In this document: positions 14,479-20,485 of the stretch, piece by piece
Layout: each line of letters starts with the position of its first letter
How positions within the stretch are numbered: the stretch's first letter is position 1
IMG/VR virus record: IMGVR_UViG_3300025838_000121
Coordinates: 1-25,569 of that record
Direction: 5' to 3' (one strand)
DNA length: 25,569 bases
Origin: a virus
Taxonomy: Duplodnaviria; Caudoviricetes
Notes under the pieces: generated by a model
Told to the model about the DNA's origin: nothing
Database searches by the model: none
What the model saw: only the letters and a program-made list of their open reading frames with translations
Translations under genes and position numbers: made by a program

Positions 14479-14644
14479 TGATTTCTTTCATGCGTTGTGC
14501 AACGGCCTTGCCAAGCCCTTTAAACATACCTGTAGGATGATTTTCCATTTCTTTGACCTGATGCCTGGCATGGTCAACAGAGCCGCTCTCCAAGGCCATA
14601 CGAGCATAATGATCAATGATGACCTGAATGTCAATGTATTTCAC
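14453..14644 (-). CDS. Hypothetical protein
   Basis: GTG start with GGAG 8 nt upstream, directly abutting the stop of the alternative-frame MTase ORF. Confidence 0.6.
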   Translation of the reverse strand: MKYIDIQVIIDHYARMALESGSVDHARHQVKEMENHPTGMFKGLGKAVAQRMKEINESCQSGS

Positions 14645-15611
14645 TCAAGATTCTCCAAGCGGTTGCTGCACAAAGGGGGACTTGTCCATTTCCGAGGGCT
14701 TTAATTCTGTCCACCCTTGAGGCCATCCCATTAACCACTCTACCCACATCGGGTTCAGTTGACCAGAAGTCTGACTCACGCACATTTGCAGATTGACTTG
14801 TTTCCCAATTTCCATACGTCTTTGAATTGATGGATTGCTCAAATTTCCTCTGTCCTTGGAGTCCGATACTTGTGGTGTTGGCCAATTCTTTTTCATTTCC
14901 AAGTTGACCGCATCCGATAGTTTTGCCCCAAATTTCGTTCCCGTAGTCAAACTGGTTCTGACAAATCTGTTGTTCGTTAATTCGATTCCATTTTGTTTTG
15001 GACTCATCCAATCCGATGATGTTGGTGTCGGCCATTTCTCTATGCGTTGTTTTAATGCTTTTCTGCTGTTGCTCCCACCATCTAATCCTGTCGTGTTGGG
15101 TGTGTGAAAGGTGTCCACTCCATTTGGCGACAATCCAAATCCTGTCCCTCTGATGTGGCGCTCCAACGTCAGCTGCTCCCAACACTCCCCATCTCGCATC
15201 AAACCCCATTGAGGCCAAGTCTCCGAGAACTCGTCCAAGTCCCCTAGAAGTGAGCATTGGTGAGTTTTCCACAAAGACGTATTTGGGTCGTACTTCACAA
15301 ATGATCCTTGCCATTTCTCGCCACATTCCAGAGGCTTTTCCATCAATTCCAGCGCCTTTTCCTGCTGCTGAAATGTCGGTGCAAGGAAATCCTCCAGATA
15401 CAACGTCAACAATTCCCTGCCAAGGTTTTCCGTCAAAGGTTTGTACGTCATCCCAAATCGGGAAAGGCGGGAGAAGGCCGTCATTTTGTCGGGCGCACAG
15501 TACGCTTGCTGGGTATTGCTCCCATTCAACTGCACAGACTGTTCTCCATCCAAGGAGATGTCCCCCAAGTATTCCTCCACCAGCACCTGCGAAAAGAGCC
15601 AACTCATTCAT
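14631..15611 (-). CDS. DNA (cytosine-5) methyltransferase, catalytic (alpha-like) chain lacking a recognisable motif IX
   Basis: Motif I LFAGAGG, IV GGFPC, VI VENS, VIII PHQRDRIWI, X RIKALGNGQVP. Confidence 0.92.
   Translation of the reverse strand: MNELALFAGAGGGILGGHLLGWRTVCAVEWEQYPASVLCARQNDGLLPPFPIWDDVQTFDGKPWQGIVDVVSGGFPCTDISAAGKGAGIDGKASGMWREMARIICEVRPKYVFVENSPMLTSRGLGRVLGDLASMGFDARWGVLGAADVGAPHQRDRIWIVAKWSGHLSHTQHDRIRWWEQQQKSIKTTHREMADTNIIGLDESKTKWNRINEQQICQNQFDYGNEIWGKTIGCGQLGNEKELANTTSIGLQGQRKFEQSINSKTYGNWETSQSANVRESDFWSTEPDVGRVVNGMASRVDRIKALGNGQVPLCAATAWRILSEIH
14645..15607 (-). CDS. Overprinted +1-frame ORF, putative beta chain of the methyltransferase (motif IX + WPTP repeats)
   Basis: 320 stop-free codons inside the MTase gene; GQLNPMWVEWLMGWPQGWT resembles motif IX; SD GAGGT 6 nt before its ATG; abuts neighbouring genes at both ends. 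Confidence 0.8.
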   Translation of the reverse strand: MSWLFSQVLVEEYLGDISLDGEQSVQLNGSNTQQAYCAPDKMTAFSRLSRFGMTYKPLTENLGRELLTLYLEDFLAPTFQQQEKALELMEKPLECGEKWQGSFVKYDPNTSLWKTHQCSLLGDLDEFSETWPQWGLMRDGECWEQLTLERHIRGTGFGLSPNGVDTFHTPNTTGLDGGSNSRKALKQRIEKWPTPTSSDWMSPKQNGIELTNNRFVRTSLTTGTKFGAKLSDAVNLEMKKNWPTPQVSDSKDRGNLSNPSIQRRMEIGKQVNLQMCVSQTSGQLNPMWVEWLMGWPQGWTELKPSEMDKSPFVQQPLGES

Positions 15612-15970
15612 ATACCTCGCCTTAGTTCTTGTAGTTTCTTTTTAATATCGTCTGGCATTGGCACAGCGTTCTTTTTATCTTCTTCAAACTTCTTCAGGAA
15701 AGGGTCTACAACCTCTTTAGGGGTGATTTCTGGCACTTCAGCACCATCCCATCGTTGCTGGTTCAAATAAACGCTTGGAGCTGGTATAAACGCCCCATTT
15801 GACTTACGCCATTGATCGGTCGTTTTCATCCATTCAACGTGTTTAATGATGGAATCACAACAGCTCTCAAGATAGTTCTTTTCCCATATCTTCATACATT
15901 GTGACTTACCCCCTTTTCGTGTAGATATTGGCCACGTTCTCCAAAATCTATCAAATCCTGATTCAAACAT
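15608..15970 (-). CDS. Short replication-initiator-like protein (C-terminal domain only)
   Basis: FDRFWRTWP...KGGK...W and FIPAPSVYLNQQRWD motifs typical of phage replication protein C-termini. ATG 15970 has GGGG upstream; alternative start at 15994. Confidence 0.7.
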   Translation of the reverse strand: MFESGFDRFWRTWPISTRKGGKSQCMKIWEKNYLESCCDSIIKHVEWMKTTDQWRKSNGAFIPAPSVYLNQQRWDGAEVPEITPKEVVDPFLKKFEEDKKNAVPMPDDIKKKLQELRRGI

Positions 15971-16074
15971 TTCAGCCCCTTTTTCTTTAGTCATAGGTTA
16001 TCCTAGGGTGGATAGTATCCACTCCTCTCCAACCCTGTTAATCTTAATGTGTCTTAAAGTATCTAAATAGCATC

Positions 16075-16395
16075 AACAAAAGCCCAAGTGCCCATGAGGG
16101 GTTAATTCGCTTATACACAAGGCCTAGTTGCCACCTGAGTTACCTTGTGCTTTACCAGTCGGTTAACCAACGCTGGTCACATTTTTCACCGGGGTGTGTC
16201 GGTGTGCGGTGTTTAACTCCTAGCCATCCATTCAAATGCTCTGCTATCGTGAGGAGTACGGAAGCCGAGTAGAAATGAAAAAAGCCGCTTAAAACTACAT
16301 TCTGGTAGGAACTTTAACCAATATGCACTACGAATATTGGATAAAGCAGAATGTAGTCTCAAACGGCTTCAAATCATTGCTTCCTACGGCAACAG
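16075..16395 (-). ncRNA. Candidate structured non-coding RNA / leader upstream of the replication gene
   Basis: No credible ORF; at least six stems found by eye; TATAAT on the minus strand at 16406-16401. Confidence 0.5.
16278..16369 (-). terminator. Long bulged hairpin followed by U6 (terminator/attenuator)
   Basis: Paired arms (+ coordinates): AAGCCG 16282-87/CGGCTT 16364-69, ACTACATTCTG 16294-304/CAGAATGTAGT 16347-57, CTTTA/TAAAG, CCAATAT/ATATTGG. A6 at 16278-83. Confidence 0.75.
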
Positions 16396-16400
16396 TTTGG

Positions 16401-16406
16401 ATTATA
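16401..16406 (-). promoter_or_regulatory. Perfect -10 hexamer (TATAAT) for the leftward leader
   Basis: ATTATA on the + strand just upstream of the structured region; no convincing -35 seen. Confidence 0.5.
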
Positions 16407-16411
16407 CACAT

Positions 16412-16606
16412 TTATTGCTGTTTTTTACGGCTTCCAATAATTATTGTTTTTACCCATTCTTTGTCGCATCTATCTAACGCTGACATTTTGGCAGCATACC
16501 TGGCATTGCAATCATCACAAGGCGATATCACCTCTCTAGCTAATTTGGCCAGCTCTACCCAGTCCCTGTAATGCTCAAAATCTCTGTAACATTTTGGATA
16601 ATTCAT
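16412..16606 (-). CDS. Small Cys-containing hypothetical protein (first leftward gene)
   Basis: YPKCY...PCDDC...RC pattern suggests metal binding. Confidence 0.6.
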   Translation of the reverse strand: MNYPKCYRDFEHYRDWVELAKLAREVISPCDDCNARYAAKMSALDRCDKEWVKTIIIGSRKKQQ

Positions 16607-16640
16607 AGATTCATCTTAAATGTTGTTTATTTATTAAATA

Positions 16641-16657
16641 CTAGGGAAAACCCCTAG
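16641..16657. promoter_or_regulatory. Palindromic operator-like site in the AT-rich divergent intergenic region
   Basis: CTAGGG-AAAAC-CCCTAG between divergent operons; TTGACA at 16667-72 nearby. Confidence 0.5.
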
Positions 16658-16712
16658 ATAATTATGTTGACAATGAATTATCATTCGTTTGCGTTAACAA
16701 AAGGAGAACGCA

Positions 16713-16817
16713 ATGACAAGATCAGAAGCCAATAAGATTCTGAGTAATTTAAAGCACGGGGCTATATATCCTTTGTATATAGTTAACCAGGCTTTGATGA
16801 CCACAGGTGACTTATGA
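16713..16817 (+). CDS. 34-aa hypothetical protein (not in ORF track)
   Basis: Strong SD AAGGAG; MTRSEANKILSNLKHGAIYPLYIVNQALMTTGDL*; ATGA overlap with the next gene. Confidence 0.72.
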   Translation: MTRSEANKILSNLKHGAIYPLYIVNQALMTTGDL

Positions 16818-20016: not shown

Positions 20017-20235
20017 ATGGATAGAGAGGATTGTAATTCATGCCACTATTTTATTGGTGGCGATGACTTAGGCCAATGCCGAAGATTCCCTACTTACCAA
20101 AATCGTCACAAAAACGAATGGTGTGGGGAATTTACTATGAAAAACGATTGTTTGGCGAGCATGGTTCAAGTTTTAACAAACCAAGTTAAGACAGAAGAAC
20201 CCAAGCGCAGAGGAAGGCCAAGACACAATGTTTAG
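20017..20235 (+). CDS. Small Cys4 protein with AT-hook-like tail
   Basis: SD AAGGAGG; CNSC...CRRFP...WCGEF; C-terminal KRRGRPR. GTG 20014 is an alternative start. Confidence 0.7.
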   Translation: MDREDCNSCHYFIGGDDLGQCRRFPTYQNRHKNEWCGEFTMKNDCLASMVQVLTNQVKTEEPKRRGRPRHNV

Positions 20236-20485
20236 ACCCTTAAGAGACCGGGTAGTTGTGAAGCCCCAAGTTCGCAATATCTCTGACATAATCTACATTA
20301 ACAATAAAGAGCCTTTCAATGAGGGCACTATTGTGGCTATCGGCCCATTGGTGGAAGATGTCCAGATCGGTGACTTCATTAAATACGGCAACGGCGATTA
20401 TCTTAACTGGCCTACTCAAAAAGTAGACGGGCAAGATTATCAAATCATTCAAGAAGCAGATATCTGCGCTGTTGTAGAGGACTAA
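20228..20485 (+). CDS. groES: GroES-like co-chaperonin
   Basis: FRPLRDRVVVK, GTIVAIGP, VQIGD, IIQEADICAVV. Confidence 0.9.
   Translation: MFRPLRDRVVVKPQVRNISDIIYINNKEPFNEGTIVAIGPLVEDVQIGDFIKYGNGDYLNWPTQKVDGQDYQIIQEADICAVVED

Follow-up and report, generated by a model that had tools for sequence, protein, structure and literature searches.

Gene content of the window and its minus-strand operon

The window, that is the whole analysed stretch of 25,569 nt, contains genes for a P22-like portal, a terminase, ERF and YqaJ. A minus-strand operon (16606-13615) harbors a small ORF, a gene-free stretch, an ORF of 128 aa (15608-15994), a methylase locus and nucleases. The methylase locus is a two-frame C5 methylase with fully overlapping minus-strand open frames at 14631-15611 (326 aa) and 14645-15607 (320 aa), both of which match methyltransferase PHROGs. 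A divergent control region shows inverted repeats at 16641-16657 and 16588-16624, possible operators or a terminator, and a phage-encoded GroES-like co-chaperonin is located at 20228-20485. As stated in the initial annotation, no helicase, loader, primase or polymerase was detected among the 44 window ORFs scanned, the virus record that holds the window being 71% complete. Host-side searches returned genome matches that were short contigs in MAGs of mixed taxa. In many of 20 records the GC skew switches its sign near the RNA described below, yet the sign follows gene direction and the skew is therefore uninformative for the position of an origin.

A stand-alone C-terminal domain of a replication initiator

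The 128-aa ORF (15608-15994, minus strand) encodes a stand-alone C-terminal domain of a phage replication initiator with a C-terminal match to PHROG 9474, 270 and 9327. It aligns solely to the C-terminal part of initiator profiles (positions 178-251 of 288 in PHROG 9474), which agrees with the earlier description of a C-terminal-domain-like gene of about 120 aa. Its ATG is preceded by a stop two codons upstream, and the N-terminal DNA-binding domain is absent. The protein has 566 relatives in viral contigs; in the 80 best of these the open frames comprise about 120-175 aa, with one of them broken. The same domain is also found within 500 longer proteins, some of which are annotated as DUF1376 or HTH_36. 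A helical tail lies outside the region matched by the long homologues and is conserved among the short proteins. The predicted model of the 128-aa protein was poor (pLDDT 59) and gave no Foldseek match (best VIA Z 4.3), nor was there a PDB sequence match. A search for AAA_25, run without a phage positive control, left 0 of 40 above the cut-off. The absence of iterons had also been noted before, and indeed the region 15500-16720 contains two-copy repeats and no iteron array.

A conserved folded element in the gene-free stretch

The gene-free stretch is a conserved folded element of ~265 nt with pseudoknots (16261-15995), which is read on the minus strand like the initiator gene and is most likely a non-coding RNA. 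It is referred to as type A, since two further types occur at related loci. Four stems had been proposed here in the initial annotation, with covariation as the check; all four are present, and the fold was examined in an alignment of 53 distinct type-A copies from loci found by protein and by DNA pattern. Across these relatives, 97.5% of the cells of the named structure are paired, compared to 80.3% after shuffling and 27-40% in slid controls, and 22 of 34 pairs show changes on both sides, a value reached in 0 of 500 shuffles. The segment 16100-16275 alone folds like its shuffles (z = -0.02); as the four stems are not better than chance in the single sequence, the proof of the fold is comparative. 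The retrieval pattern fixed some alignment columns, so the invariance of the ACCAG/CTGGT stem is partly built in; this stem varies in distant homologues. G-U pairs (237) exceed A-C pairs (24), which fixes the strand of the element.

In detail, the 5′ domain (16261-16216) consists of a short 5′ stem, a pseudoknot (16257-16252 with 16221-16216) and a hairpin with a conserved loop (16238-16225), and its start is common to many type-C RNAs. The ACTCCT/AGGAGT pairing is apparently this 5′ pseudoknot, read by eye and outside the counted structure. The core (16215-16077) comprises the stems 16210-16178, 16177-16154 and 16149-16116, a small hairpin (16099-16091) and a pseudoknot of 6 bp between 16168-16163 and 16105-16100, which had been overlooked and is paired in 53 of 53 copies. 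The type-A model matches at 16077-16260 with 182 bits. Within the core, two segments (16135-16131 and 16127-16124) of an inner loop (16135-16124) pair with the 3′ boundary. Covariation between loop and boundary in 107 sequences includes exchanges of G:C (105) with A:T (2) and of A:T (86) with T:A (20), and in distant homologues, judged by eye, the pairing is kept with other letters.

The AT-rich tract that was said to follow the stems forms a variable arm (16083-16032) whose closing helix, 16083-16081 with 16034-16032, is among the top long-range covarying columns of the 107 sequences, so the tract is probably a variable loop within the RNA. This arm forms long perfect stems in some relatives. 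The 3′ domain (16031-15995) extends to the start codon and contains a local hairpin (16022-16008) and the conserved 3′ boundary (16011-16003). The boundary motif is present in the 105 type-A loci listed, including those where no start codon follows.

Two explanations that would have spoken against the proposal were named in the initial annotation. A decayed 5′ part of the gene is rejected in view of stops in all three frames and of core lengths that fall 16/20/17 across the classes modulo 3. Membership in a known RNA family is likewise rejected, since the Rfam scans gave no match at gathering threshold or at a meaningful E-value. The 3′ boundary was also compared with the DnaA-box consensus, and this candidate was dropped because distant homologues alter the sequence yet keep the pairing. 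One type-A copy (L076:2939-3055) has an internal deletion that fuses the 5′ domain to the 3′ boundary and is either an artefact or natural.

Putative promoter and hairpin leader

Upstream of the element lie a likely promoter and, at 16393-16278, a CI-like hairpin leader, which had been overlooked. The putative -10 hexamer (16406-16401, minus strand) suggests a transcription start near 16394, and a -10-like hexamer (loose pattern) lies upstream in 147 of 170 A/B loci. A consensus promoter scan requires a -35 match and does not list this hexamer; the same scan, which thus misses the sense promoter, shows no plus-strand promoter-like site over the RNA. The leader begins with a small 5′ hairpin (16393-16377). 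A 7-nt box in its loop (16387-16381) shows complementarity to a bulge of the long CI/c4-like hairpin that follows (16369-16278), and this long hairpin carries the anti-box (16311-16305), a U-tract and the inverted repeats I1 and I7. The folding z of 15990-16400 is -4.6. The complementarity of box and anti-box has a mean of 6.4 nt versus 4.3 nt after shuffling, and 60% of the 146 leaders reach 7 nt or more. The sequence of the box varies, box and anti-box change together, and leader types are interchangeable among relatives. The cassette of leader and folded element sits after a cro-like gene and at the heads of operons.

The long hairpin is a candidate attenuator gating transcription into the RNA. 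By analogy the leader resembles the CI control of P4, from which its function here may be deduced. The c4 RNA of P1/P7 is of the P4 CI RNA kind. For P4 it is described that the hairpin RNA acts with a complementary upstream box and gates the replication genes via premature termination (PMC4825925, in part). The likeness consists of a leader hairpin with a complementary upstream box and a covarying 7-nt pair of loop and bulge, and it is confined to the leader, which has no match to the Rfam C4 families.

Three interchangeable RNA types

The occurrence of the RNA was surveyed at the 80 best loci of the short protein out of its 566 relatives, without deduplication. Exactly one RNA type was found in 77 of the 78 assessable loci (A 47, B 27, C 3); the 78th has an internally deleted type A, and two of the 80 lack upstream sequence. 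In one of the 47 type-A loci the RNA lies downstream of the gene. No locus with two types was found, and 18 near-complete records, picked for having one, carry one copy of one type each. On a quick tree of 103 proteins (121 columns) the type changes ~29 times, the minimum being 2 and the shuffled value 43. The RNA is thus swapped often and hardly ever lost in this sample. Near-identical proteins (L072, L039, L062) carry A, C and B, respectively, and therefore the protein probably does not read one particular fold.

Three types (A, B, C) were modelled. Type B (e.g. L037:2175-2400; L214-L333) is about 225 nt long, has two competing pairings for one strand and shows no evident sequence in common with A or C. 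Type C (L039:2820-2980; L454-L573) often has the 5′ start of A and ends in a G-rich 3′ hairpin; its first hairpin has GNRA loops in 44 of 69 cases, and GNRA and UUCG loops are exchanged. In some loci (L455, L460, L464, L484) the type-C 5′ domain is replaced by a tRNA-like sequence. By single exact patterns, the families are estimated to comprise about 170 (A), 270 (B) and 180 (C) IMG/VR stretches; type B had no match in INPHARED. Some other stand-alone initiator C-terminal domains (L466, L471, L738, L720) differ in their tail and form a second subfamily, which occurs near type C or distant type B.

Association of the RNA with the type of initiator

To avoid circular sampling, relatives were picked by exonuclease and terminase, resulting in 159 distinct loci after short-gene duplicates were dropped. 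Type A or B is present in 17 of 19 short-initiator loci versus 0 of 31 loci with a full-length initiator or helicase; 103 loci have neither gene nor RNA, and one has the RNA only. Of the two exceptions among the 19, one is a contig that stops 398 nt upstream and the other has a distant type B. The Fisher value of this contrast is 1.7e-11, which overstates independence, as the loci are related and do not count as separate events. Of 28 whole records with a full-length initiator or helicase, 14 of which have a completeness of 90% or more, a single one contained B, and none contained A or the C pattern; one of these scans had no positive control of its own, and its model works in a separate scan. 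A search with one full-length initiator gave 73 loci, of which two, belonging to the query phage, carry A, another two a distant A and a single one B. In L363 and L364 the distant A is found immediately upstream of a full-length initiator gene.

The initial annotation had allowed for replication genes outside the window. Neither a helicase nor an initiator N-terminus was found in 17 near-complete short-initiator genomes by a Walker-A scan and seven phmmer queries, and the controls G004, G018 and G020 were positive in the same searches. A PHROG scan took in 150 proteins out of 432 clusters and excludes primases and polymerases non-exhaustively.

Starting from the RNA, a short gene lies nearby in 42 of 50 A loci, 38 of 49 B loci and 20 of 52 C loci (within 2 kb for C), and is missing nearby in 8, 11 and 32 of them, respectively. 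The RNAs also occur in phages with a full initiator and a helicase or primase-helicase (G001, G007, G004, G018, G020). In unrelated phages the cassette is further found before capsid-like genes, between or after terminase genes, at operon ends and before virion genes. The cassette is thus portable and does not require the short protein, which fits an accessory origin and fits an expression element, too. The suggestion that the RNA occurs only with N-truncated initiators therefore holds in part: sister phages with a full initiator are mostly without the RNA, but the RNA also exists without a short gene nearby. At four loci (L221, L222, L238, L290) a promoter-hairpin-type-B cassette follows a scaffold-like gene, and three of these loci have a capsid-like gene immediately after the cassette (by eye).

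A covarying repeat at the 3′ end of RNA types B and C

In type B, a 9-nt internal segment equals the sequence just past the RNA's own 3′ end and changes along with it. In 67 distinct pairs, 7.42 of 8 positions are identical, compared to 4.78 ± 0.13 after shuffling; for this sample, 8 insertion variants of 75 were set aside and one mis-parsed row was kept. The repeat is retained in a 24-bit type-B homologue outside the training set. Of the mismatches at positions 2-8, 14 have G in the internal and A in the 3′ copy and one has the opposite arrangement; the ratio at position 9 is 1 to 4. The polarity at positions 2-8 would be explained by G-T wobble, provided that the partner of the internal copy is the strand complementary to the 3′ copy. 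A same-strand partner (with at most one mismatch) is not matched in 42 of the 75 rows, and in many other rows the partners are A-rich copies that likely match U-tracts. An antisense RNA is a possible partner.

Type C has a covarying repeat as well (7.28 versus 6.73 ± 0.08 shuffled, 61 pairs), and none of 36 type-A windows contains one. In type A the inner loop captures the boundary in sense orientation, and its partner could thus be the 3′ end of the RNA itself or the non-template DNA strand that is displaced. For type A, and so for this window, an R-loop step is deduced from the interchangeability with B and C, type A being without a signature of its own. The initial idea of a pre-primer or R-loop RNA is consequently favored by the repeats in B and C and by the near-exclusive presence beside short initiators, but not by type A, which lacks the repeat.

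A proposed RNA-opened origin and alternative explanations

A cassette of a hairpin leader followed by A, B or C, with its fold and its strand, is established as near-obligate beside the short initiator and rare beside full-length ones. We propose that the folded element probably serves as a replication origin replacing the missing DNA-binding half of the initiator. Our main reading, to which we assign a probability of roughly 0.55, is an origin opened by RNA and an initiator that acts as a loader only. Host RNA polymerase would start near 16394, with the leader hairpin deciding on read-through. The nascent RNA would fold and hold the duplex open while the polymerase moves across the 3′ boundary. 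For types B and C this would be achieved by an internal boundary copy that pairs with the template strand; for type A the inner loop may capture the boundary sequence, either at the 3′ end of the RNA itself or on the non-template strand that is displaced. The 128-aa protein would recognise the opened DNA instead of the RNA fold and would recruit host helicase and primase, and the RNA-DNA hybrid may supply the primer as well. A wider version is more tentative, and we hold it with somewhat less than even confidence: interchangeable unrelated structured RNAs would have taken over origin recognition and melting from the DNA-binding domain, with a built-in guide programming an R-loop in cis and the leftover domain only loading the host replisome, in a widespread phage module. 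Against an RNA-opened origin stand type A without a covarying repeat and the RNAs in phages with complete replication modules.

Alternatively, the cassette could be a portable expression element at the operon head, such as a put-like anti-pausing or antitermination RNA or an mRNA-stabilising leader, acting outside replication. Its position after a cro-like gene, at the heads of operons and, in unrelated phages, before capsid-like, terminase and virion genes fits this. The put RNA of HK022 is a small two-hairpin element. As a protein-free RNA acting in cis on the nascent transcript of an early phage operon it is a precedent (PMC9378689, in part), which differs from our element in having no link to an initiator type, the latter being without an Rfam match. 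We nevertheless regard this explanation as unlikely, since sister phages with full-length initiators lack the cassette (0 of 31 loci; 1 of 28 records) and the covarying direct repeat would be left unexplained.

The repeat would also be conserved if the working molecule were the folded non-template DNA strand, as a transcription-activated single-strand origin or a slipped-strand structure, and covariation fixes the strand and not the chemistry. Many G-U pairs, the GNRA/UUCG exchange in type C and the pseudoknots are RNA traits, however, and a promoter-like site lies ahead of the cassette, so the chance of a DNA structure appears a little smaller still.

The RNA had further been proposed as a scaffold giving origin specificity, bound specifically by the 128-aa protein, which would thereby be tied to the nascent transcript and, through it, to the origin. 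The tight linkage of RNA and gene, on either side, would suit such a partnership, as would the conserved helical tail of the short proteins beyond the part matched by long homologues. Three different folds beside near-identical proteins, with B sharing no evident sequence with A or C, weaken the proposal to the point that it seems improbable.

In type A the captured 3′ boundary adjoins the start codon, as expected of a cis-acting leader that governs translation of the next gene by pairing over the ribosome-binding region; the next gene varies, however, the RNA is preceded by the initiator gene at some loci (A, 1 of 42; B, 6 of 38; C, 3 of 20), and the boundary motif is retained without a following start codon, all of which makes this reading very improbable. 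Equally little credence is given to a selfish mobile RNA or ribozyme riding in phage genomes, for which many insertion contexts and a compact pseudoknotted fold with invariant bases speak, against a single copy of a single type in each of the 18 near-complete records, no two-type locus, no consistently adjacent mobility enzyme and the strong enrichment beside short initiators.

Comparison with known origins

The RNA-opened origin proposed here can be compared with several systems. ColE1 RNA II extends over about 550 nt up to the origin, under the control of the antisense RNA I (PMC5043065, in part). For its R-loop, an rG stretch in the RNA must pair with a dC stretch in the template (PMC4412123, in part), and the trigger of the persistent hybrid is still called speculative in the review (PMC5043065, in part). 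A promoter-driven folded RNA with template-strand pairing near the origin, as suggested for B and C, is common to both (PMC4412123, PMC5043065, each in part), as is the reliance on host enzymes that is proposed here. In contrast, ColE1 has no initiator protein, whereas here a cut-down initiator is kept (beside the RNA in 42 of 50 A loci), and the RNAs are about 220-270 nt long, of three types, and located in phages behind a CI-like leader. The catalogued ColE1-type RNAs in Rfam do not match the element. By analogy, the element is like ColE1 RNA II in the presumed hybrid step and not a member of this family, because there is no catalogued match and the initiator domain is kept.

The T4 origins oriF and oriG likewise combine a promoter with a persistent RNA-DNA hybrid (PMC4412123, in part), which is presumed in our case. 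They differ by an unwinding element and a replisome of their own, whereas the phages studied here show no helicase; the available part of that source describes no folded RNA family for them (PMC4412123). Lambdoid O-type and DUF1376/YdaU initiators have the homologous C-terminal domain in the same genomic slot. Here, in contrast, the N-terminal DNA-binding domain and the iteron array are lacking and an RNA cassette is present instead. No published description of these RNAs was found in the literature searched, and six plus six short motifs were unmatched in the part of the supplements of PMC10690425 other than files 1 and 2, which may hold fragments of these RNAs.

If correct, our main reading would account for replication in a large group of freshwater phages that have an initiator fragment only and no helicase. 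In origin recognition a protein domain would be substituted by RNA, in at least three different folds. The hundreds of natural variants in which the guide covaries allow a ColE1-type hybrid trigger to be tested directly, and the cassette of less than 1 kb is a candidate minimal replicon. Whatever their function, A, B and C each constitute a large RNA family for which Rfam gave no match. Distant type-A-like RNAs (L451, L574, L579, L582, L583) share the 5′ domain and have other cores, and possibly represent further types.
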